DNA of 64,000 nucleotides from an uncultured Candidatus Saccharibacteria bacterium (GTDB lineage Bacteria > Patescibacteriota > Minisyncoccia > Phycocordibacterales > JABMNX01), in NCBI GenBank assembly GCA_964575755.1, contig CAZNRH010000002.1, forward strand, positions 70,351 through 134,350, read 5' to 3'. Under the pieces are notes generated by a model. The model was not told where the DNA came from, did not search any database, and was given only the letters and a program-made list of their open reading frames with translations. This document shows positions 6,321 through 57,799 of this stretch, in pieces. The stretch's first letter is position 1. Each line of letters begins with the position of its first letter. A program made the translations under genes and the position numbers.

Positions 6321-6352
6321 CCCCGTCACAGTAGCTACGTGACGGGTTTTTT
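6321..6352 (+). terminator. rho-independent terminator
   Basis: Stem cccgtcac/gtgacggg followed by tttttt. Confidence 0.6.
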
Positions 6353-7187
6353 ATTTCAACTTAAAATATACCTTATTACCAAAACGTAGATCTATGTATT
6401 CTATGTCTTCTGTATTCTTTTCTCTAAATGTTTCTGAATCGAGAACGACAGTAAGGTTATCGAGCACCTCAGACGATCCTTGTTTTCTTGTGAAGATAAT
6501 CTTACTCTCACCTTCTAGATAAAGCTCCATATTTGAGACACCTACTGTGTGTAATTCGATAGGTATAACCTCTAACTTTTTAAGTGAATCAATAAGAGTG
6601 TTCATTTTATTAAATTCGTCGTTTATTTTTAAATAATACTTACCTACATAATCTGGACCTATTAAATCTCCATAAAAACGCATGAAGACATTACCCGTAA
6701 AGTTGGGTGCTTTCGAGAATACAAACCCTTCCGTATTAATGAAATAACAATCCTCTGTTAATTCACTACTTTTATCAGTACACCAAAGAGCATACGGCTT
6801 CTGCTCCTCTATTTCCATGGATAAAGTTTGAAGGTCAGTACGCACGATATCAACTGACTCAATTTGCTTAAATGTGGTTAAGATAGAAGACTCTATCTCT
6901 TCTTCTGGAAAAATTAAACTGTTTGTACGCGGAAATAATAAAAAATATTTTCCACCCTCAAGAACCTCTTCTGTAACATCTTTTATTCTTGAGTCTGAAA
7001 TAACACTACTTCCATTTATAACAATATTGTTTATCTGCAAGTATGGACGATACGATACCCACGAACCTAAACCTATTAAAAGTATAATGACGACCACGCT
7101 ACCAACAATTTTCCATAAAAAAGATCTACGCCTACGTTTAGCAAGTCTTTCTGGTCGTGCTACTTTACATCTCCTAAACCACTTCAT
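6351..7187 (-). CDS. ftsQ: cell division protein FtsQ/DivIB-like
   Basis: Basic cytoplasmic N-terminus, one TM helix, POTRA-like region (VDIVRTDLQTLSMEIEEQKPYALW). Confidence 0.7.
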   Translation of the reverse strand: MKWFRRCKVARPERLAKRRRRSFLWKIVGSVVVIILLIGLGSWVSYRPYLQINNIVINGSSVISDSRIKDVTEEVLEGGKYFLLFPRTNSLIFPEEEIESSILTTFKQIESVDIVRTDLQTLSMEIEEQKPYALWCTDKSSELTEDCYFINTEGFVFSKAPNFTGNVFMRFYGDLIGPDYVGKYYLKINDEFNKMNTLIDSLKKLEVIPIELHTVGVSNMELYLEGESKIIFTRKQGSSEVLDNLTVVLDSETFREKNTEDIEYIDLRFGNKVYFKLK

Positions 7188-7299
7188 CCCGTACGAAATA
7201 GGACACGGACTAATGTTGCCATTGTCCTAAAGTTAAATCCTCTGTTAATTATCGACTTATTTTCCATATATTATGTTTGTATCCATGATTTCGTACGGG
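7188..7299 (-). repeat. start-codon-abutting inverted-repeat element (copy a, upstream of ftsQ) with internal 27-aa micro-ORF
   Basis: Arms cccgtacgaaataggacacgga and tccatgatttcgtacggg are complementary. The element ends exactly at the ftsQ ATG. Internal ORF MENKSIINRGFNFRTMATLVRVLFRTG spans 7184-7267 on the minus strand. Its TGA overlaps the ftsQ ATG as ATGA. Confidence 0.75.
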
Positions 7300-7306
7300 A
7301 TTTATA

Positions 7307-8572
7307 TTATTTTGATATTATGTCCTTCCCTAAATATTTTTGCAACACTTCTGGAACTTTAATAGATCCATCTTCCTGTTGGAAATTTTCTACAAGCGAT
7401 ACTAGGATTCTTGGTGTTGGTATCGCGGTGCAGTTAAGAGAGTGGACATATTTAGCTTTTCCATTCTTGTCTCTATATTTAATATTAAACCGTCGTGTTT
7501 GGAAATCATGGAAATACGACGCTGAACTTATCTCGCGATATTTTTCTTCAAGTGGCACCCAAAGCTCAATGTCATACTTCTTAACCTGACCTTGTCCTAA
7601 ATCTCCACCACAATTAAGTACTGTGTGATACGGAATATTAAGTGATTCAATAAACTCTTCTGTATTTCTATTTATCCATTCATGTAGTCGCACAGACTCT
7701 TCATGATTAGCTTCGCATAAAACAACCTGTTCAAGCTTAAAAAACTCATGCACTCTAATGAGTCCTTTTGTATCCTTTCCATGACTTCCTGCTTCCCTCC
7801 TATAACACGGGGAGAACGACAAGAATTTTACTGGAAAAATCTTCTCATCTAGAATCTCATCGGCATAATATCCCATTGTTGATATCTCTGACGTACCAGC
7901 AAGATAATCATCGTCTTGCGTCTTATATATATCATCAACTTCGTTTGGTAAATGTCCTGTGCCGTATAAATTACTCTTACGAACTATCGAGGGAACAATC
8001 ATTGGGGTAAACTCTTTTTTAAGGAAAAAGTCCATTGCGTAATTCCAAATAGCCCATGACAAAAGTGCGCCATCATTTTTAAGAAAGTACCCACGGAACC
8101 CATGCACCTTTGTACCACGCTCAAAATCAACCATGTCCAGCGCTGTCATTATATCTACATGATTTTTTGGCTCAAACGAAAACTGAGTTTTCTCTCCCCA
8201 CACCTTTATTTCTTTATTATCTTCATCATCTTTTCCCTCTGGCACTGACATGTCTGGAACATTTGGAACTTGTAGCATAAGCGTATGCCACTTTTCCATA
8301 ACACCCTTCAACTCTTCTTCTTCTTTTTGTAATACTGCCTTAAGTTCTTTCATTTCAGAAATAGCCTGATAGCGAACATTCTGGTCTTCTGACTTTGCTA
8401 TCTCTTCATTTGCTTTATTTTGTCTTGCGCGTTTTTCTTCCACTGATTTCAATATCTCTCGCCTTTTATCATCAAGAGTAATAAGACTATCAATATCAAA
8501 ATCCATATGCTTTTTTCGAGCACCTTCCTTAACAAGATCTTTGTTTTCTCTAATGAAGTTAATATCTAACAT
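7307..8572 (-). CDS. serS: seryl-tRNA synthetase
   Basis: N-terminal coiled-coil arm and class II core. Typical SerRS sequence and length of 421 aa. Confidence 0.9.
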   Translation of the reverse strand: MLDINFIRENKDLVKEGARKKHMDFDIDSLITLDDKRREILKSVEEKRARQNKANEEIAKSEDQNVRYQAISEMKELKAVLQKEEEELKGVMEKWHTLMLQVPNVPDMSVPEGKDDEDNKEIKVWGEKTQFSFEPKNHVDIMTALDMVDFERGTKVHGFRGYFLKNDGALLSWAIWNYAMDFFLKKEFTPMIVPSIVRKSNLYGTGHLPNEVDDIYKTQDDDYLAGTSEISTMGYYADEILDEKIFPVKFLSFSPCYRREAGSHGKDTKGLIRVHEFFKLEQVVLCEANHEESVRLHEWINRNTEEFIESLNIPYHTVLNCGGDLGQGQVKKYDIELWVPLEEKYREISSASYFHDFQTRRFNIKYRDKNGKAKYVHSLNCTAIPTPRILVSLVENFQQEDGSIKVPEVLQKYLGKDIISK

Positions 8573-9476: not shown

Positions 9477-9524
9477 CTGTCTTAACATTTGACAGATGGT
9501 TATACTTACTGTAAATATATATTC

Positions 9525-9662
9525 CTATGAATCCCGTTAGAGATAAGTCCTCCAGAGGAGACTGTCGGACACTGGGACGATATATACAACAATATAAAAT
9601 ATTATTAACACATTTAATTTTAGGACAAAGGTTGTTTACATCGGTGTCCTATCTCTAACAGG
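9525..9662 (+). repeat. start-codon-abutting inverted-repeat element (copy upstream of topA, no micro-ORF)
   Basis: 5' motif ctatgaatcccgttagagataag. 3' arm ggtgtcctatctctaacagg is immediately followed by the topA ATG. Arms pair (cccgttagagata / tatctctaacagg). Confidence 0.7.
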
Positions 9663-11870
9663 ATGAAACTATTAATTGTAGAATCGCCAGCAAAAGCAAA
9701 AACTATTTCAAAATATCTTGATGATAAATACACAGTACGCGCATCTGTGGGGCATGTTCGTGATTTACCAAAAAGTAACAAAAATGCTATCGATATAGAT
9801 GCAGGTTTTGTCCCCAACTATGAAATATCAAAAGGTAAAGAAGACATCATAAATGAACTTAAAAAACTAGCTAAAAAATCTGATGAAGTGCTCCTTGCAA
9901 CTGACCCCGACCGAGAAGGTGAAGCAATCGCATGGCACTTGAAAGAAATACTAAAACTTAAAGACCCTAAACGAGTTGTGTTTAACGAAATTACAAAAGA
10001 AGCTGTGCAAGAAGCTGTTGCACAGCCAAGATTGATAGATGACAATCTGCGTAAAGCTCAAGAAGCTAGACGCATACTAGATAGACTTGTTGGTTATGAC
10101 CTTTCTGGATTGATATGGAAAAAGCTACGCTATGGACTATCTGCAGGACGCGTTCAGTCACCCGCACTTCGAATCATAATGGAGCGTGAGCGTGAGATAC
10201 GTGCGTTTATACCTGAAGATTTTTGGGTACTAACTGCCGACGTAACAACTGCAAAAAAAGTAGCTTTTCAGCTTACGTGTACTAAAGAACCAAAAACAGA
10301 AGAAGAGGCAAAAAGGATCTGTAAAGTTGGAAAGAAGGGGGCTTGGGTGATTAAGGACGTTATAGAAACGAAAGCCAAACGCTCGCCGAAACCACCATTT
10401 ATAACATCAACACTGCAACAAGTTGCGAGCACTCGGCTAGGTTTTGCGCCAAGTCGTACTATGGGTATTGCACAGAAGTTATACGAATCTGGACATATAA
10501 CATATATGCGTACTGATAGTACCAATCTAAGCAATCAAGCACTTACCCATATTGAAGAAGTTGTTAAAGATAAGTATGGAGCTAAGTTCAGTAACAAAAA
10601 TGTATTTAAAGCCAAGAGCAAAGGTGCACAAGAAGCACATGAAGCTATTCGACCTTCAAACTTCCTTAAAGAAAGTGCTGGTAATAACGAAGACCAAAAG
10701 AGTCTCTATACTTTAATTTGGGAAAGGACTGTTGCTTCTCAGATGTCAGATGCAGAAATACTGCGCACTAAAATAACTGCCAATATAATAAATGAAACAG
10801 AAAGTAATGCTATTCCAAATTTTGCTACCAATGGATCACGAGTTATGTTTGAAGGATGGCTCAAGGCAGATCCACGAGCACGCGGTGAAGATGTTGAACT
10901 TCCCAAAGTAATGAAAGATGAACCTATAACGCTTAAAGATATGGGGTCAGAAGGTAAACAAACCCAGCCACCTTTCCGTTATACAGAGGCTGGTCTTATT
11001 AAAAAACTTGAAGAACGTGGCATTGGACGCCCCTCCACATATGCATCTATCATGAGGACACTCCAAGACCGTGAATATGTAATAAAAGAAGGACGAACTC
11101 TCTTCCCCACTGACACTGGAGATGTGGTGAGCTCATTTCTTGAGAAGAATTTTGAAAAATATATCAGTGATTCGTTTACAGCAGAGATGGAAAATGAGCT
11201 TGATGAAATAGCACAAGGAGAACGCAAATATGAAAAAACATTAAAAGATTTCTATACTCCATTTAGTAAAGATGTTAAATCAAAAGAGAGTATGGACAAG
11301 ATAACAAATCTTGGCGACGCCCCAGATGAATTTGACTGTCCTAAGTGTAAAAGCAAAATGATTATCAAGCTTGGACGAGGTGGTAAGTTTATGAGTTGCG
11401 ACAAGTTTCCAGAATGTATAGGCGCTCGGACAATAGAAGGAAAGATTATAGAACCAGACAAACCAATTGGAAAACATTCCGAAACAGGAGAGGATGTATA
11501 TCTGCTCACAGGGCGTTTTGGTCCATATGTTCAAATGGGAGCAAGTCCAGCAAAAGGAGAGAAAAAAAAAGAAAAGCCACGCCGAGCGAGCGTGCCAAAA
11601 GAAAAAGATATCGACGAAGTCACAATGATAGACGCAGAGAAATATTTGAGCCTACCTCGCATACTCGGAAAGCATCCTGAGACAAACGAAGACATCACAG
11701 CAAGCATAGGACGCTTTGGACCATTTATCGTGCATGATGGAGATTTTCGCTCACTGAAAACAGATGATGTGTACGCTATAAAATTAGATCGGGCTCTTGA
11801 AATACTAGCAGAAGAAAAAAAGACTCGAGGTAAGAAAAAGGCGGTAAAAAAGAAGGCGGTAAAAAAGTAG
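9663..11870 (+). CDS. topA: DNA topoisomerase I
   Basis: TOPRIM start MKLLIVESPAKAKTI. C-terminal zinc ribbon CPKCKS...C and a lysine-rich tail. Confidence 0.95.
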   Translation: MKLLIVESPAKAKTISKYLDDKYTVRASVGHVRDLPKSNKNAIDIDAGFVPNYEISKGKEDIINELKKLAKKSDEVLLATDPDREGEAIAWHLKEILKLKDPKRVVFNEITKEAVQEAVAQPRLIDDNLRKAQEARRILDRLVGYDLSGLIWKKLRYGLSAGRVQSPALRIIMEREREIRAFIPEDFWVLTADVTTAKKVAFQLTCTKEPKTEEEAKRICKVGKKGAWVIKDVIETKAKRSPKPPFITSTLQQVASTRLGFAPSRTMGIAQKLYESGHITYMRTDSTNLSNQALTHIEEVVKDKYGAKFSNKNVFKAKSKGAQEAHEAIRPSNFLKESAGNNEDQKSLYTLIWERTVASQMSDAEILRTKITANIINETESNAIPNFATNGSRVMFEGWLKADPRARGEDVELPKVMKDEPITLKDMGSEGKQTQPPFRYTEAGLIKKLEERGIGRPSTYASIMRTLQDREYVIKEGRTLFPTDTGDVVSSFLEKNFEKYISDSFTAEMENELDEIAQGERKYEKTLKDFYTPFSKDVKSKESMDKITNLGDAPDEFDCPKCKSKMIIKLGRGGKFMSCDKFPECIGARTIEGKIIEPDKPIGKHSETGEDVYLLTGRFGPYVQMGASPAKGEKKKEKPRRASVPKEKDIDEVTMIDAEKYLSLPRILGKHPETNEDITASIGRFGPFIVHDGDFRSLKTDDVYAIKLDRALEILAEEKKTRGKKKAVKKKAVKK

Positions 11871-27125: not shown

Positions 27126-27209
27126 GCCGGGATGGTGGAATTGGTATACACGCAACACTTAAAATGTTGTGGGCGTAAGCCCATGCGGGTTCAACTCCCG
27201 CTCCCGGCA
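27126..27209 (+). tRNA. tRNA-Leu (anticodon UAA)
   Basis: Acceptor GCCGGGA/TCCCGGC. Anticodon stem CAACA/TGTTG with loop CTTAAAA. Long variable arm. Discriminator A. Confidence 0.8.
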
Positions 27210-27222
27210 CAAAGAGAAATGA

Positions 27223-27256
27223 ACCTCGTCTGAGAAGACGAGGTGATTTTCTTTTG
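27223..27256 (+). terminator. terminator after tRNA-Leu(UAA)
   Basis: Stem acctcgtct/agacgaggt followed by gattttctttt. Confidence 0.6.
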
Positions 27257-27258
27257 TA

Positions 27259-27388
27259 GCCGGGAGCGGGAGTTGAAAGACGGAAGCGGTATACAAGATG
27301 CGTAGTGAAACGGAGCAGGCTTGTCGCTGAGTCGGGGTCGAGAGTACTTAGTGCATAGCACTTAGTAACTCGTGACCAACTCCCGCTT
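27259..27388 (+). repeat. tRNA-linked AGACGGAAGC element (unit A)
   Basis: Starts with the reverse complement of the tRNA-Leu(UAA) 3' end (gccgggagcgggagttgaa). Then aagacggaagc. Core gctgagtcggggtcgaga. Ends ttagtaactcgtgacc plus a copy of the tRNA T-arm 3' strand (caactcccgct). Confidence 0.6.
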
Positions 27389-28060: not shown

Positions 28061-28125
28061 TAAATCAAACAAACACCACTTGAAACAAAATCAATACTAA
28101 ACTATACTAGTGGACACATATTAAT

Positions 28126-28189
28126 GTGCGAGTGGTGAAATTGGTAGGACAAACAGTGTTTAAACACTGTTTGTCCCCGTCGAGTGAGG
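28126..28189 (+). pseudogene. tRNA-like pseudogene (tRNA-Leu-derived 5' half, no T-arm or acceptor 3' strand)
   Basis: GTGCGAGTGGTGAAATTGGTAGGAC closely matches the 5' half of the adjacent tRNA-Leu (GCGCGAGTGGCGAAATTGGTAGAC). Followed by an aberrant anticodon hairpin with a 6-nt loop and no T-arm. Confidence 0.5.
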
Positions 28190-28218: not shown

Positions 28219-28300
28219 GCGCGAGTGGCGAAATTGGTAGACGCGCTAGTCTTAGGAACTAGTGGGGCAACCCATGGAGGTTCAAGTCCTCTCTCGCGCA
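28219..28300 (+). tRNA. tRNA-Leu (anticodon UAG)
   Basis: Acceptor GCGCGAG/CTCGCGC. Anticodon stem CTAGT/ACTAG with loop CTTAGGA. Long variable arm. Discriminator A. Confidence 0.85.
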
Positions 28301-28345
28301 CAGTGTCTATTTTTTATAGAACATAGTAAAAGGTATCGCAAGATG

Positions 28346-28373
28346 TGGAGGTTCAAGTCCTCTCTCGCGCACA
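28346..28373 (+). repeat. exact 28-nt direct copy of the tRNA-Leu(UAG) 3' end
   Basis: tggaggttcaagtcctctctcgcgcaca is identical to 28275-28302, with a 43-nt spacer. Confidence 0.8.
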
Positions 28374-28422: not shown

Positions 28423-28812
28423 TTAAAAAGAAACATTATCATTATAATGAGAATAAAAGTTACCACCTCCACTTCCTCTCCTCTCTATCACACCTGGTAT
28501 AATCACATTTTGATCCTGTACACTAAAAGTAGATTGGAGCATTCTAATCAATCCCCAAATTGAAACCATTACAAAAAGAGCAATAATTCCATATATCATA
28601 ATGTCTCGCCCTTCGGATTTTTTATCCTCACTTCCTTGATTAAATATGAACTGAGCCAACCCCCAGAAGAAATAAAGCACTGCAAGAGCTAGTACCAACG
28701 GAATTGCCGTATTTATTAAGCTAGAAAAAGTACCCATCACAGCTTCCAAACTTTGAGCACTAGCCACTAGTGGCATAATAAGCAATCCTAACGCCACAAA
28801 AAATGTTTTCAT
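28423..28812 (-). CDS. TrbC/VirB2-like pilin-type small membrane protein
   Basis: Signal peptide MKTFFVALGLLIMPLVASA followed by two TM helices (AIPLVLALAVLYFFWGLAQ and IMIYGIIALFVMVSIWGLIRML). Confidence 0.6.
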   Translation of the reverse strand: MKTFFVALGLLIMPLVASAQSLEAVMGTFSSLINTAIPLVLALAVLYFFWGLAQFIFNQGSEDKKSEGRDIMIYGIIALFVMVSIWGLIRMLQSTFSVQDQNVIIPGVIERRGSGGGNFYSHYNDNVSF

Positions 28813-28837
28813 ATAATTTAATACTACAACACTATTA

Positions 28838-29086
28838 CTATATTGGCAAGTCGAACATATTTTCCATAAGTCTGACGATACCGAGTGCAGCGATCATAAC
28901 AAACATACCAATCACACCCCACAACATATGTACCTTTCCCTCTTTTCTGTCGTCTTCACTATCTGCCTTCCAGATAAAGACCGTCATACCCCACAGGAAA
29001 TACAAGAAAGCAGTTGCAAATAAAAGCAGTATAAGCGGGTTTATAATAACCGTATTTATGTTATCGATAAGCCTGTCTGTCGTCAT
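28838..29086 (-). CDS. TrbC/VirB2-like small membrane protein (no signal peptide)
   Basis: Two TM helices with the same ...FLWG...MLWGVIGMFVMIAALGIVRLM pattern as its neighbours. Confidence 0.45.
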   Translation of the reverse strand: MTTDRLIDNINTVIINPLILLLFATAFLYFLWGMTVFIWKADSEDDRKEGKVHMLWGVIGMFVMIAALGIVRLMENMFDLPI

Positions 29087-29095
29087 ACCTTACTA

Positions 29096-29431
29096 TTACC
29101 TCTTTACTTCCTTAGGAATAATAACAGTCTGATCTGTTACACTAAAAGTAGATTGGAGCATTCTAATCAATCCCCAAATTGAAACCATTACAAAAAGAGC
29201 AATAATTCCATATATCATAATGTCTCGCCCTTCGGATTTTTTATCCTCACTTCCTTGATTAAATATGAACTGAGCCAACCCCCAGAAGAAATAAAGCACT
29301 GCAAGAGCTAGTACCAACGGAATTGCCGTATTTATTAAGCTAGAAAAAGTACCCATCACAGCTTCCAAACTTTGAGCACTAGCCACTAGTGGCATAATAA
29401 GCAATCCTAACGCTACAAAAAATGTTTTCAT
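29096..29431 (-). CDS. TrbC/VirB2-like pilin, near-identical paralog of 28423-28812
   Basis: Start set at MKTFFVALG. The first ~100 codons are ~99 percent identical at DNA level to the paralog. The C-terminus differs. Confidence 0.6.
   Translation of the reverse strand: MKTFFVALGLLIMPLVASAQSLEAVMGTFSSLINTAIPLVLALAVLYFFWGLAQFIFNQGSEDKKSEGRDIMIYGIIALFVMVSIWGLIRMLQSTFSVTDQTVIIPKEVKR
29131..29431. repeat. ~300-bp segmental duplication (partner 28510-28812)
   Basis: Near-identical DNA over about 300 bp. Only isolated single-base differences were seen. It covers the 5' parts of two pilin genes. Confidence 0.8.
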
Positions 29432-29567
29432 ATAAAATTTATTTAATATTTCTTTTAATAGAAACCTTCTACTAATAATCAATTATAATTATAGAGTAAT
29501 AATAGCCGATAATTGCACTAAAGAGCAATCCAGCAGTGTGGATATAGTAAACCACACTAAAATTCAG

Positions 29568-29930
29568 CTAAATTCTTATAGTCTCACCTGGAGTATACTG
29601 CTGTTGCGTGGAACCACCAGAACCTAAAAAAGTATTACTTAAAAGACGTAAAATACCCCAAATAGATACCATAACAAAAAGTGCAATAATACCGTAAATC
29701 ATAAGCTTTCTGCCATCTTCTATCTTAGAAGTATCTCCAGCTGAAAATATATATTGAGAAACTCCCCAAAAGAACCCAAGAACTGCTAACGCAATTATTA
29801 TAGGAACCGCTAAATTAATAAAACCTACCAACAACCCAACAAGCTCAGGAAAAGTCTGCGGAGCAGCGAAAGTAACCATTGGAATAAATAGAAGTGCTGA
29901 TAATGTTAATATTGTAAGTCTTTTTAACAT
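29568..29930 (-). CDS. TrbC/VirB2-like pilin-type small membrane protein
   Basis: Signal peptide MLKRLTILTLSALLFIPMVTFA. TM helices AVPIIIALAVLGFFWG and LMIYGIIALFVMVSIWGILRLL. Confidence 0.6.
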   Translation of the reverse strand: MLKRLTILTLSALLFIPMVTFAAPQTFPELVGLLVGFINLAVPIIIALAVLGFFWGVSQYIFSAGDTSKIEDGRKLMIYGIIALFVMVSIWGILRLLSNTFLGSGGSTQQQYTPGETIRI

Positions 29931-29933
29931 AAT

Positions 29934-30350
29934 TTATCCAGTTAAAAGTCCGATAGTGTTTCTTACAATAATTGCCAATGTCCAAGAACCAAGGAATAAG
30001 GCTACCCCAATAATTGTATAGTAAAAAGTCTTCTTAGCTTCTTCAATCTTTGTTACATTACCCTGTGCTGTAACAAAAAGGAATCCAGAATACACAATAG
30101 ACAACACCGCTATTGGAAGTCCTATATTAATAACTGCCTTTAGAAGCAACTCAACAAATTTTTCAAAGCTATAGATACCGCTATTTTCTAATGGGTTTTC
30201 TAAACCAGCTGCAAGTGCATATGGTACTGTAACCATAAAAAAGAAAATAAATGTTGTTAATGTTTTTTGAATCCCATACGAAATAGGACACGGACTTATA
30301 GTATTTTTATCCACAAGTATAGATTTTATATTAATTGTCAACTTTTTCAT
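29934..30350 (-). CDS. TrbC/VirB2-like small membrane protein (start uncertain; N-terminus reads through a repeat element)
   Basis: Two TM helices (INIGLPIAVLSIVYSGFLF and IIGVALFLGSWTLAIIV). The ATG at 30350 lies in the loop of element copy b. An alternative ATG lies at 30236. Confidence 0.5.
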   Translation of the reverse strand: MKKLTINIKSILVDKNTISPCPISYGIQKTLTTFIFFFMVTVPYALAAGLENPLENSGIYSFEKFVELLLKAVINIGLPIAVLSIVYSGFLFVTAQGNVTKIEEAKKTFYYTIIGVALFLGSWTLAIIVRNTIGLLTG

Positions 30351-30393
30351 TTTTATTATAATTTTAATGTCCGTGATTTCGTACGGGACTAAT
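30272..30393 (-). repeat. inverted-repeat element (copy b) between the SBP-like gene and the pilin gene
   Basis: Arms atcccatacgaaataggacacggac and gtccgtgatttcgtacggga. An in-frame ATG in the internal loop (MKKLTINIKS...) is homologous to the micro-ORF of copies a and c. Confidence 0.7.
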
Positions 30394-30395
30394 AC

Positions 30396-31703
30396 TTATC
30401 TTAGCAAATTTTGTAACTCTTTATGGGCAGTACTTACTGACTCACTCGTCCTCAGTCTACCAGAAACAACTGACTCTATCATTAGTTTAAATATTTCATC
30501 TGTCTTGCTTACACTGGGGTCGAGCCAAGCACGAGACTGAAGCGCTGCGTCGGCAAAAATAACTTTAAATGGATCCGATGGCCTGTTGGCTAACAATGAC
30601 CTTGATACTGGAGATAGGCCTGTCTTTTCTGACATATCCTGCAAGACCGAGTCAGACGTAAGTGCAAAAGCTATCTGCATTGCTCCTGCAATATTCTTTG
30701 ATGTTCTTGGAATCGCTAAGCCTGTAATATTTCCAAAGGTAATATTATTGTTACTACTTCGAACCTGCGGAACAAGAGCGACATCGAAATTTAAGTTGGC
30801 GTTTTTTTCTCTTATAGATGAAAGCTCGCTCGCAAAACCTACGTAGTTAGAAAGTATTCCGGATACAAAGGCTTGTTTTGATTCTGGTAATGCACGGTTC
30901 CATGTATAAATGGTCTTTGTGGGGTTTGCAAAATCTGTATAAAAACGGAGAGCATTCTCAGCAGGCACCTGTCCATCACTTAATTGACGAACTAGCCCCG
31001 AAGACAAAGAACCGTTACTTCCAACTAATACTAAATCACCCCCTGCCTGCAGTATCAACATCGAGAGTAACTCTTTTGCATGTGCAATGTTTTGATACTC
31101 TCCAATTGACAAAGCGCTTTTAAATATTTCCCCACTGTCACCACGTGTTGTTAATGAACCATTAAGAGCAAACGACACTATCTCATCCCAAAACCGTGGC
31201 GGTCGAGATATTCCAGCTTGAGAATAATGATCCCTGTTCCAATAAAGAACCAACGGGTCAACAGTGAAAGGAAGGGCGGTAATACCATTCCCACTTAAAA
31301 ACAATTCTGCTTCTTGAATAAAAGCATCTTTAAACTCACGCTGTGACATAACGTCATATGAAATTGGATAAATCTTATCCCCGTGCCTTAAAATAGTGTC
31401 TTGGCTTAAGAAAAACAAATCAGGACCTCTCTGAGACGCAAGGGCTTCTACTAATTCCTCATCAAAAAAACGTACATCTTTTTCAATATATGTAACTTGG
31501 TCAAAACGGTCATCGTTAAATGAAGCCTCTCTTATGAGTGCCTCCATAACCTTGTCGTCATACGTACCCCAAATCACTACCTCGCCTACATTAGCGCCGC
31601 CACCTCCAAACCCGCCAACACCAGCAAAGAGCATCACTCCAACCACTGTAAAAAATATAAAGGCTCCAGTAACAACTATTTTAAATACGCTTAATTTATT
31701 CAT
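30396..31703 (-). CDS. membrane-anchored extracellular solute-binding-protein-like protein
   Basis: N-terminal TM/signal anchor, Gly-rich linker, then a periplasmic-binding-protein-like pattern (VVIWGTYDDKVMEALI...). Weak assignment. Confidence 0.4.
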   Translation of the reverse strand: MNKLSVFKIVVTGAFIFFTVVGVMLFAGVGGFGGGGANVGEVVIWGTYDDKVMEALIREASFNDDRFDQVTYIEKDVRFFDEELVEALASQRGPDLFFLSQDTILRHGDKIYPISYDVMSQREFKDAFIQEAELFLSGNGITALPFTVDPLVLYWNRDHYSQAGISRPPRFWDEIVSFALNGSLTTRGDSGEIFKSALSIGEYQNIAHAKELLSMLILQAGGDLVLVGSNGSLSSGLVRQLSDGQVPAENALRFYTDFANPTKTIYTWNRALPESKQAFVSGILSNYVGFASELSSIREKNANLNFDVALVPQVRSSNNNITFGNITGLAIPRTSKNIAGAMQIAFALTSDSVLQDMSEKTGLSPVSRSLLANRPSDPFKVIFADAALQSRAWLDPSVSKTDEIFKLMIESVVSGRLRTSESVSTAHKELQNLLR

Positions 31704-31823
31704 CCCGTACGAAATAGGACACGGACTTAAACAGCCCTTGTCTCTATGTTTAATATTCTATTAATTATCGACTTATTTATCATATATTGTTTCTGTGTCC
31801 GTGATTTCGTACGGGATTCATAG
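31704..31823 (-). repeat. start-codon-abutting inverted-repeat element (copy c) with an 18-aa micro-ORF
   Basis: Arms cccgtacgaaataggacacggac and gtccgtgatttcgtacggg with an outer attcatag motif. Micro-ORF MINKSIINRILNIETRAV spans 31727-31783 on the minus strand. The element ends exactly at the ATG of the 30396-31703 gene. Confidence 0.75.
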
Positions 31824-45027: not shown

Positions 45028-45148
45028 GAATCCCGTTAGAGACCGCGGTCGCGAAACAGGAAAAAATAGTTATGAGTAATAGTCGAATTTATATTTATAA
45101 AACATTAACAACACAGGCAGCGAAAACCGCGACCTGTCTCTAAACGGG
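45028..45148 (+). repeat. start-codon-abutting inverted-repeat element (copy upstream of ftsZ) with a 23-aa micro-ORF
   Basis: 5' motif atatgaatcccgttagagaccgcggtcgcg. 3' arm cgcgacctgtctctaaacggg is immediately followed by the ftsZ ATG. Micro-[26 protein letters not shown] spans 45072-45143. Its TAA stop ends 5 nt before the ftsZ ATG. Confidence 0.7.
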
Positions 45149-46342
45149 ATGAAAAAAATACAACCAGACGTTGAAGCATTTGCACGAATACGAGTAGTTG
45201 GAGTAGGAGGTTCAGGAAACAACGCTGTTAATCACATGATTAACACGAAAGTAACCGGTGTCGATTTTGTATCAATAAACACTGACGCACAAGCACTACA
45301 TGGCTCAACCGCAAAGAAGAAGATTCACATCGGTAAAAATCTTACACGAGGTCTTGGAACAGGCATGAACCCAGAAATGGGAAAGCAGGCAGCAGAAGAA
45401 ACGAAAGAAGAAATCCAAGAAGCTGTTAAAGGTTCTGACATGGTTTTCGTAACCTATGGAGCTGGTGGAGGAACTGGTACAGGAGCAGCTCCTGTGGTAG
45501 CTAAGATAGCGCGAGATTCAGGAGCACTGACCGTAGCTGTTGTTACTAAGCCTTTTTCTTTTGAAGGACAACAGAGAATGCGCTTAGCAGAACTTGGACT
45601 TGAAGAAATCAAAAAAGAAGTAGATGCGCTTATAGTTATCCCTAACGACCGACTACTTGCTGTTGTACAGCGTGAGACCTCTGTCAAAAATGCATTTGCA
45701 ATGTGTGACGACATACTAAAGCAAGCTGTTGAAGGTATTTCAGACCTTATTACCATGCCAGGAATAATTAATGTCGACTTCGCAGACGTTCGCGCTGTTA
45801 TGGACAATGCTGGTTCGGCTCTTATGGGTATCGGAACAGCTACAGGTGAGAAACGAACTGAAGATGCTGCTAAAGCAGCTATCAGCTCACCTCTTCTTGA
45901 AGTTTCAATAGCAGGAGCTAAAGGAGTATTGTTCTCAGTTGCAGGTGGTGATGACCTCTCAATGCTTGAAATTCAAGACGCAGCTAAGGTAATTACAGAA
46001 TCAATTGATCCAAACGCAAAGGTTATCTTTGGAACAGTACAAGATGACAAACTTAAGAAGAATGAAGTAAAGGTGACCGTTATCGCAACAGGATTCCCTG
46101 AAAATTCAATGCCGTCAGGAAAAAGCTCTTCCCTATTCCAGCTTCCAAAGAAGGATGCAGAAAAAACAGAAGAAAAAAAAGAAAGTAAAATTTATAATTC
46201 AGTAGCAAAGTTAACAAACGACCCTAAAAAAACAGACAAGAAAGATGATGCAAAGAAAGACGGAGATGTAAAAAAAGATGATACAGATGATGACGACTGG
46301 GGCGCAGTTCCAGCATTTTTGCGACGGTCGAAGTTAAAGTAA
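45149..46342 (+). CDS. ftsZ: cell division GTPase FtsZ
   Basis: [10 protein letters not shown] tubulin signature. Acidic linker. C-terminal AVPAFLRR peptide. Confidence 0.95.
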
Positions 46343-53318: not shown

Positions 53319-53364
53319 TTTGTTAGTTTACCACACAGCCTAAAAACCGCTCTCCCAAGCCCAA

Positions 53365-53396
53365 CCCGCCTCGCAAGCGAGAGCGTTGCAGGCAGG
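53365..53396. repeat. left copy of a perfect 32-bp direct repeat bracketing the R-M cassette
   Basis: cccgcctcgcaagcgagagcgttgcaggcagg is identical to 57768-57799. Confidence 0.85.
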
Positions 53397-53675
53397 CAAA
53401 TTAAATGCCCCAACCCATGTGGGGCATTTAATTCTTATCTTTCCCCCGTTTCTCTTCCCTCTGTCTTGAAACTAAGTCTTCTACACTCTTACGACTCGTA
53501 AAATACGCCCCAAGCGCAGCACCCACAACAGCAACAATAATTAAAATAAGGATATTCATGGTTTTATTTTAGCATGACACCACAAAAACCTCCCCCGCAA
53601 TAGAAGGTGTTGTGGACAGGCAAAATAAACAGCCAGAGTACTCATGCTATTTAATTTTTATATTCTGGCAAAAAA

Positions 53676-57685: not shown

Positions 57686-57767
57686 TACTGTTTATTATTC
57701 CAGTCTCTCTAATCTAAAAGTACCACGTTTAATCATTTAATCAATGAAATTAAATAGTAGTACCCCG

Positions 57768-57799
57768 CCCGCCTCGCAAGCGAGAGCGTTGCAGGCAGG
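57768..57799. repeat. right copy of the 32-bp direct repeat bracketing the R-M cassette
   Basis: Identical to 53365-53396. Confidence 0.85.

Follow-up and report, generated by a model that had tools for sequence, protein, structure and literature searches.

The serS-ftsQ junction

The stretch of DNA considered here, 64,000 nucleotides (nt) of contig CAZNRH010000002.1 from an uncultured Candidatus Saccharibacteria bacterium (hereafter the window), carries a short palindromic element between serS and ftsQ on the minus strand. The downstream gene encodes an FtsQ/DivIB-like protein of 278 amino acids (aa) (6351..7187, minus strand); its homologues are named FtsQ, some carry PF08478/PF03799, and its start is backed by homologues of 273-282 aa aligned across ~100% of the query. 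The element copy, termed c1, is 114 nt long (7187..7300, minus strand), and it ends at 7187 on the A of the ATG of ftsQ, the start codon that the element has hit. From the serS stop codon (7309-7307) towards ftsQ, the minus strand reads T ATAAA TCCCGTACGAAAT ... ATTTCGTACGGGA TG. The two 13-nt sequences are the 5' (7288..7300) and 3' (7187..7199) terminal inverted repeats, which pair perfectly over 13 bp with 0 mismatches. The 5' repeat is identical in at least 80 loci of other genomes, and an unpaired T always stands before the 3' repeat and TG after it. Comparison with empty sites identifies ATAAA (7301..7305, minus strand), located 1 nt past the serS stop, as a degenerate left target copy derived from ATGAA.

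Within c1 lies a micro-open reading frame (micro-ORF) of 27 codons, which starts with ATG and encodes MENKSIINRGFNFRTMATLVRVLFRTG (7184..7267, minus strand). It passes through the 3' arm of the element, and its TGA (7186-7184) overlaps the ftsQ ATG (7187-7185) within the four bases ATGA; an earlier note had described this arrangement, which is directly seen in the letters and in the ORF listing. As also stated there, the N-terminal sequence M-x-N-K-S-I-I-N-R recurs at 31727-31783, where the ORF of a second copy (c3) reads ATG ATA AAT AAG TCG ATA ATT AAT AGA... (MINKSIINRILNIETRAV*). This match rests on 17 identical nt (AATAAGTCGATAATTAA) and is therefore, taken alone, uninformative about coding. 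In the Logan contig SRR6439372_435361 (L086, 1877 nt), an independent assembly of the same ftsQ, the sequence breaks off within the element, 85 nt before the ATG, as expected of a repeat that fragments short-read assemblies.

Filled and empty insertion sites

Four contigs (L081, L082, L084 and L085) encode FtsQ proteins 60-74% identical to that of the window and retain the gene order topA-dprA-serS-ftsQ-...-dus-dnaX. The gap from the serS stop to the ftsQ ATG is 1-5 nt in these relatives and free of the element (...TAAtatATGAG or ...TAAcATGAAA), indicating that c1 is a young, lineage-specific insertion. At this junction the empty site of a relative reads ...tcaaaaTAAtatATGAGATTGTTTAGG, and the filled site of the window reads ...tcaaaaTAAtATAAA, 114 nt of element and TGAAGTGGTTTAGG. 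A comparison of the same kind can be made at the dprA-topA junction, where the relative has ...TTGACA-N17-TAAATAtataatcttATGAAACTATTAATA and the window has ...TAAATAtatattcctATGAA, 132 nt of element and TGAAACTATTAATT; here TGAA is duplicated, and the topA site is empty in the same four contigs. Size, inverted repeats, target duplication, dispersed copies and empty sites, that is, all the testable hallmarks of a miniature inverted-repeat mobile element (MITE), are present, and the family is a MITE that inserts in one orientation at gene start codons.

The stop/start contact at ftsQ is explained by the insertion itself. The duplicated target is TGAA, since codon 2 of ftsQ begins with A, and a stop codon further upstream has been lost: at the position 23 nt before the gene ATG, c3 and a third copy (c2) have TAA, whereas c1 has TTA and its ORF gains 9 codons. 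The ATGA overlap is missing from both of these sister copies of the same genome and is a derived feature of c1, not a conserved arrangement of the family. A dedicated ftsQ leader, in which hairpin and coupled upstream ORF evolved to control ftsQ translation, could point to an overlap and a stem over the start codon that are both real. However, close relatives have no leader at all, the overlap is not shared by the sister copies, and the element also stands before topA, before genes for a solute-binding and a pilin-like protein, and before over 70 more, which leaves this explanation hardly credible. The micro-ORF is the loop ORF of a mobile palindromic element of ~114 bases that landed on the ftsQ start, not an ftsQ-specific leader as had been proposed, and across the family stop/start contact occurs in 12 of 84 copies, about the control level (see below).

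Element copies in the window

The window contains five copies; c2, c4 and c5 are additional to the two in the earlier note. The inverted pair of the 13-mer TCCCGTACGAAAT is found three times (c1, c2 and c3), each time oriented as its downstream gene. The terminal repeats match over 13/13 bp in c1 and c3 and over 12/13 in c2 and c4, and the termini of c4 and c5 are variant but mutually compensating. Flanks of the perfect ATGAA/TGAA type are seen in c3, c4 and c5, with ATAAA as the left copy in c1. RNA folds of c1, c2 and c3 range from -33 to -41 kcal/mol with z of about -6 (c1, -40.8 kcal/mol, z = -6.1).

Copy c3 (114 nt; 31703..31816, minus strand) lies at the ATG of a gene for a solute-binding protein of 435 aa and has a perfect flank duplication, ATGAA...TGAA; its loop ORF of 18 codons (31727-31783, minus strand) stops 23 nt upstream of the gene ATG. 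Copy c4 (132 nt; 9532..9663, plus strand) lies at the topA ATG (9663), with the variant termini TCCCGTTAGAGAT / ATCTCTAACAGGA, a perfect TGAA duplication and a promoter, TTGACA-N17-TAAATA, located 9 nt upstream of the left ATG. Copy c5 (119 nt; 45031..45149, plus strand) has the variant termini TCCCGTTAGAGAC / GTCTCTAAACGGGA and is flanked by aAGGAGaatATGAA on the left and by TGAAAAAA on the right.

Copy c2 (117 nt; 30272..30388, minus strand) has one arm mismatch and precedes a gene for a small pilin-like membrane protein. This gene has ATT in place of ATG, and after an indel shift the loop ORF, with its ATG at 30350, is joined in frame to the gene. In this region, 30260-30350 on the minus strand, either ATT serves as start or the element now provides the start codon. 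In the resulting ORF (29934-30350, minus strand) the loop ATG is the sole upstream in-frame ATG and would add 28 residues ahead of the signal peptide.

Distribution and insertion specificity of the family

A collection with one genome per species was scanned for exact termini with an 85-115 nt spacer, and at least 80 stretches were found. Nearly all of them are labelled, as deposited, as metagenome-assembled genomes (MAGs) of Patescibacteria or the candidate phyla radiation (CPR), including Nomura-, Zambryski-, Niyogi-, Wolfe-, Harrison- and Doudnabacteria and Paceibacterota, and several stretches or contigs frequently come from a single MAG. Copies were also seen on contigs whose deposited labels are a Nanoarchaeota MAG or Gammaproteobacteria MAGs (L018, JAGVNG010000018.1; L030; L067). 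These are most likely mis-binned CPR contigs, not true hosts.

Family counts refer to 84 oriented copies, with gene starts taken from ORF length and, for ftsQ and topA only, from homology in addition. The terminal A is the A of an ATG in 81 copies, and 77/84 have an ORF of 50 codons or more beginning at this point. A flank duplication is present in 60/84 (exactly 4 nt in 51 copies, with six more of 5 nt and three of 3 nt), its length thus not being perfectly fixed; the duplicated sequences follow the pattern TGNA (TGAA 25, TGGA 17, TGTA 5). An ATG stands 4-6 nt upstream of the element in 65/84 copies, giving the layout ...ATGNA|TCCC...GGGA|TGNA.... Because TGNA is duplicated and the element supplies an A, the start codon is duplicated and the ATG rebuilt at the 3' end. 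In c1, and in about one fifth of the copies, the left ATG has been lost. The 13-bp stem, the unpaired T and the precise GGGA|TG junction are found universally, and diverged copies detected with profile hidden Markov models (nhmmer, 660 kb of fetched loci) likewise adjoin an ATG. Element size ranges from 55 to 132 nt; short versions of 55-82 nt exist, one 55-nt copy lies away from any ATG, and the ORFs contained are of at most 36 codons, with no transposase gene. At one locus (L063, 7454-7828) three elements form a head-to-tail tandem array, one with the main termini and two with TCCCGTTAGAAAT. They are joined through ATGAA, each on the motif created by its predecessor, indicating that the duplicated target can be hit again.

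The downstream genes cover 94 Pfam families across 79 proteins, many of them essential, and include topA, EF-G-type GTPases, aminoacyl-tRNA synthetases, SecA, SSB, SMC, trigger factor, PilB and solute-binding proteins. The solute-binding-protein gene has been hit by elements of three or four subfamilies across five genomes.

As far as the libraries examined show, the element is undescribed. Rfam 15, at gathering and E-value thresholds, detects only tRNAs in the window and has no family for the element; the best match on 7100-7400 reaches 28.9 bits against a gathering score of 60 and is to an unrelated Listeria sRNA. Viral contigs gave no match to the element, leaving carriage by phages unsupported, and a full-text literature search by sequence and topic found no description of it; a paper on a Halobacterium MITE concerns something unrelated. 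Two other identities were considered and rejected: mimicry of tRNA or tmRNA, as ARAGORN gives no match at the element, and an integron attC site, as the termini are without GTTRRRY/RYYYAAC cores and the flanks show true duplication.

Conservation of the interior and of the stems

In eight orthologous pairs (same downstream gene, 50-94% aa identity) identity amounts to 0.56-0.99 in the element interior and to 0.38-0.64 at third codon positions of the neighbouring gene; the left ATGNA is kept in both members. Such conservation would fit either purifying selection on whole old insertions or repeated hits by similar master copies. Compensatory changes are frequent in the terminal and subterminal stems, which together measure ~19-22 bp, but they fit RNA structure and co-evolving transposon ends alike and do not discriminate between the two. 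The sense fold is more stable than the antisense fold by 1.1 kcal/mol only. Strand-specific G.U wobble was considered as proof of RNA function and dropped, the hint in a 24-sequence alignment having vanished when all distinct stems were counted.

A regulon signal, in which the 13-mer pair is recognised by a protein or an RNase for common control and mobility is merely historical, would account for several of these observations: distant CPR lineages share the identical 13-nt sequence and not just its pairing, conservation of the interiors in orthologous pairs exceeds that of synonymous sites, and many core functions lie downstream. Yet an exact-termini search inflates the conservation of the termini, gene sets differ by genome, close relatives have empty sites, and some copies have variant, compensating termini; common control of this kind is quite improbable.

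Loop ORFs across the family

The frequency of short ORFs in the element was compared with two controls, the reverse-complemented interior and a shuffle of the loop. ATG-initiated ORFs of at least 8 codons that lie in the loop and end 10-30 nt before the gene ATG (class I) occur in 31/84 copies, against 4 in the reverse complement and 6.5+-2.4 in the shuffle, a five- to eight-fold excess over both. Upstream ATGs that share the frame of the gene are fewer than in the controls (6, compared with 11-16). The overlapping type seen at ftsQ behaves differently. ATGA is present in 45/84 copies merely since codon 2 begins with A, and peptides of the overlap type have only ...VRVLFRTG in common, a sequence that results from reading the conserved 3' arm in this frame.

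The loop ORFs fall into subfamilies that differ in peptide and in the gap between stop and gene ATG: 25 nt in a1 (peptide MKLIKYIINNKKDNGA), 21 nt in b (...TTEI), 18 nt in c (...QIIRITNENL) and 23 nt, as measured in c3, in the window type (MxNKSIINR...), which comprises three copies only. In a1 the 16-codon ORF is open in 13/13 aligned copies at 67% mean identity, whereas a column shuffle that preserves relatedness leaves it open in 2.5/13 (P=0.0012). When all a1-type copies are read by eye, it is retained in 14/17. These 16 codons are free of indels, and the loop upstream of them varies in length. Codon-position entropy is 0.57 / 0.75 / 0.95, the third position being the most variable, and 125 synonymous differences are counted in frame, about twice the counts of 63 and 52 obtained for the alternative frames. 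The trait retained seems to be not the peptide but a frame that begins with ATG, stays open and closes at the base of the 3' stem. A peptide read from the left ATG was also considered, since MNPVRN and MNPVRD looked synonymous, and was rejected: 3- and 5-nt duplications read other frames (MIPYEI, MESRTK), and the stops vary.

The earlier note had further suggested that translation of ftsQ could depend on the stem being translated and unwound. This idea survives in the form of the loop-ORF enrichment across the family but not as ATGA coupling, which occurs at chance level.

Expression of genes behind the element

A -10-like box lies 5-10 nt before the left ATG in 32/64 left flanks (loci L002-L080), and words resembling a Shine-Dalgarno (SD) sequence are rare there, which suggests leaderless transcripts starting at the left AUG. 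Leaderless mRNAs are apparently common in these Paceibacteria, as the flanks of the targeted genes and the window at 9490-9531, where topA is an example, suggest.

Many insertion sequences and MITEs create promoters, and an outward promoter inside the element would yield a transcript without the 5' arm and hence without the hairpin. The A+T-rich centre does offer -10-like words, TATTAT in a1 and GATAAT in c1 and c3, and c1 has TTAACA-16-GACAAT at 7248-7221. Nevertheless, this c1 site is unconserved in c3 (GACAAG), and the conserved TATTTC / TGTCTC 7 nt before the ATG is without the key -10 bases; a -10 role for TATTTC was itself rejected, c5 having TGTCTC there. Consensus sigma-70-like promoters inside the element are found in the sense direction in 17/84 copies, at scattered positions, and in the antisense direction in 33/84. 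An internal promoter is thus quite improbable, and given the low frequency of sense promoters transcription most likely enters from upstream. With antisense matches about twice as frequent as sense ones, the region upstream might receive transcription that starts in the elements.

A possible translation relay from the old start to the new one

The ORF that starts at the left ATG crosses the 5' arm, which is free of stops, and is mostly 6-33 codons long, with its end in the loop. In a1 a gap of 3-8 nt separates its stop from the ATG of the loop ORF, or the two are fused; in c3 they overlap as ATGA. A relay chain was defined as left ATG, loop ORF and gene ATG in succession, with restart allowed from 15 nt before to 30 nt after each stop. 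Such a chain is present in 40/67 copies, against 17/67 in the control, and is most evident in a1 (11/13 vs 3), b (8/15 vs 0) and c (5/7 vs 2).

The following course of events is favoured as probable. Transcription from upstream would read through the element, whose hairpin of -30 to -41 kcal/mol would include the A of the gene AUG in its last pair. The old start signals, whether an SD, the -10 box of a leaderless transcript or coupling to the preceding gene, remain 5' of the element together with a second ATG. Ribosomes from the left AUG, or those terminating on the upstream gene, would translate the 5' arm and stop in the A/U-rich loop, and would restart on the loop ORF that ends at the foot of the 3' stem, keeping the stem open and releasing ribosomes 0-25 nt from the gene AUG. 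Reinitiation at this AUG would then proceed without an SD. In c1, with its left ATG decayed and its loop-ORF stop lost, the ORF that reaches the TGA on the ftsQ ATG would represent a tighter, derived relay. A 9-codon ORF, MDTNIIYGK* (7257..7286, minus strand), starts in the 5' subterminal stem 21 nt downstream of the end of serS and stops 8 nt past the ATG of the micro-ORF; it could be the first relay step from serS.

A mobile element of start codons combined with a relay in which the loop ORF links the old start with the new is the best explanation of these data, and we hold it with slightly better than even confidence; translation through the element probably matters in this capacity. Several points weigh against it. 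Qualifying ORFs are absent from 36/84 copies, and subfamily a2 and part of b (b2) have no ATG loop ORF. For a2 and the remaining copies the relay chain is as frequent as in the control (13/29 vs 12/29), indicating that the relay cannot be a universal mechanism, and among 18 cluster representatives the figures are 12 vs 6 only. Stops overlapping or adjacent to the gene ATG are found in 12-13/84 copies, compared with 9 in the reverse complement and 7.1+-2.5 in the loop shuffle. The length of the micro-ORF is within chance for A+T-rich sequence, no SD precedes the loop ATG, and the loop-ORF peptide is weakly conserved, one pair of loci (L014 and L072) differing by three non-synonymous and zero synonymous changes. 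The conserved ATTATTAAT could be a DNA or RNA signal instead. In the subterminal stem, G.U and A.C mismatches across all distinct stems number 8 vs 8, that is, without a strand signal. No cognate autonomous partner was seen in the 660 kb of fetched loci, neither arm pairs 0.5-3 kb apart nor a transposase. Moreover, copies are related by descent and their counts are non-independent, and the scan by exact termini favours intact copies, conservation of the termini being partly ascertainment.

Much of this would suit a different explanation, in which the micro-ORF is a chance, untranslated frame in a selfish MITE that is tolerated, the gene being expressed through a split ribosome-binding site, as exemplified by T4 gene 38, in which the terminal stem would bring the old SD or 5' end next to the new AUG, or after an RNase III cut of the ~20-bp stem, as in Correia elements, that would leave an almost leaderless mRNA. 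What is universal in the family is the stem, the unpaired T and GGGA|TG, not the ORF, and a stem of ~19-22 bp has the size of an RNase III substrate. Against chance stand the a1 loop ORF, open beyond the null that preserves phylogeny, the excess of class-I ORFs, the depletion of in-frame upstream ATGs, and a gene AUG whose A is paired and which has no SD nearby. We consider an idle ORF of this kind unlikely, though by no means negligible. For a2 and the part of b without a loop ORF, the relay would have to give way either to another mechanism, such as hairpin-bridged initiation or RNase III processing, or to poor expression.

A wider proposal, possible but on balance doubtful, is that a CPR family homing to start codons survives on essential genes by means of its own hand-over. 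The ATG would be rebuilt, the old start kept, and ribosomes carried across the very stable hairpin either along successive short ORFs or by shunting or hopping from one AUGNA copy to the other, with old copies becoming maintained leaders of genes such as ftsQ, topA and those for EF-G and SecA.

Comparison with known systems

The Correia elements (NEMIS) of Neisseria and the ERIC/IRU sequences of enterobacteria are likewise non-coding repeats of ~100-150 nt with inverted repeats, target duplication and many copies. They are also co-transcribed with adjacent genes as long hairpins able to affect expression, with empty and filled sites in relatives, and RNase III processing is known for Correia elements. 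However, Correia elements duplicate TA, have 26-bp repeats and occupy varied intergenic sites in either orientation, whereas the present element duplicates TGNA and has 13-bp repeats, with 96% of its copies exactly on a start codon, in one orientation, and a last base that rebuilds the ATG.

The Rickettsia palindromic elements (RPE) are similarly small and palindromic, occur in reduced genomes and survive at essential genes by compatible insertion. They lie in frame within ORFs, and translation makes them a segment of the host protein. The present element, in contrast, sits on the start codon, its lengths are not multiples of 3, and in nearly all copies the frame opened by the left ATG is closed after 6-33 codons; only c2 resembles a fusion. 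Oriented, nearly exclusive placement on start codons, an ATG rebuilt by the terminal base and an apparently maintained loop ORF together distinguish it from Correia, ERIC, RUP and RPE.

Termination-reinitiation and the unfolding of start hairpins, as in ATGA genes, 70S scanning and leaders of the ermC type, likewise involve a short ORF that ends near a structured start without an SD. Here the arrangement is mobile and copied to unrelated genes, the usual stop lies 18-25 nt upstream and does not overlap the start, and the proposed chain from a duplicated start codon would have two steps. In CaMV 35S shunting, T4 gene 60 bypassing and the byps of Magnusiomyces mitochondria, a stable hairpin similarly separates a first start or short ORF from the real one. 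The Magnusiomyces byps have matching take-off and landing codons that derive from mobile-element insertion, like the ATGNA...ATGNA pair here. Nevertheless, the present element shows no sign of hopping, no stop directly follows the left ATG, and c1 and other copies have lost the left ATG.

For genome annotation, the micro-ORF and N-terminal extensions such as that beginning at 30350 should be treated as by-products of the repeat, not as genes or regulators of ftsQ. A precision of ~96% for start codons, in one orientation and before genes that are essential in very small genomes, sets the element apart from the usual bacterial MITE and raises the question of how the transposition system recognises a start codon. 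A second question is how an AUG without an SD at the foot of a -40 kcal/mol hairpin is translated in organisms that apparently rely heavily on leaderless mRNAs. At ~120 nt, the element is a compact cassette in which reinitiation, 70S scanning and shunting may be studied in bacteria, and a marker for CPR lineages.

Other repeats in the window

The pilin-like gene behind c2 belongs to a cluster (28423-30350, minus strand) of four or five paralogous small membrane proteins of ~82-138 aa, with a signal peptide and a hydrophobic helix and the look of TrbC/VirB2 pilins. This cluster includes a direct repeat of 300 nt (28496-28795 and 29115-29414) with 97% identity. Repeats are also associated with tRNA genes, at 2790-2875, at 27190-27277, and at 28125-28147, 28275-28302 and 28346-28373. 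The tRNA-Gln gene has a stem of at least 13 bp that reaches past the acceptor stem, a 42-nt inverted repeat begins inside the 3' end of tRNA-Leu(taa), and tRNA-Leu(tag) is accompanied by exact duplicates of 23-28 nt of its 5' and 3' ends. These tRNA-flanking repeats may be remnants of integration sites or processing stems. Finally, an unrelated G+C-rich repeat, CCCAACCCGCCTCGCAAGCGAGAGCGTTGCAGGCAGG, occurs at 53360-53396, 53584-53620 and 57763-57799, two of the copies being 95% alike and the third 62%.

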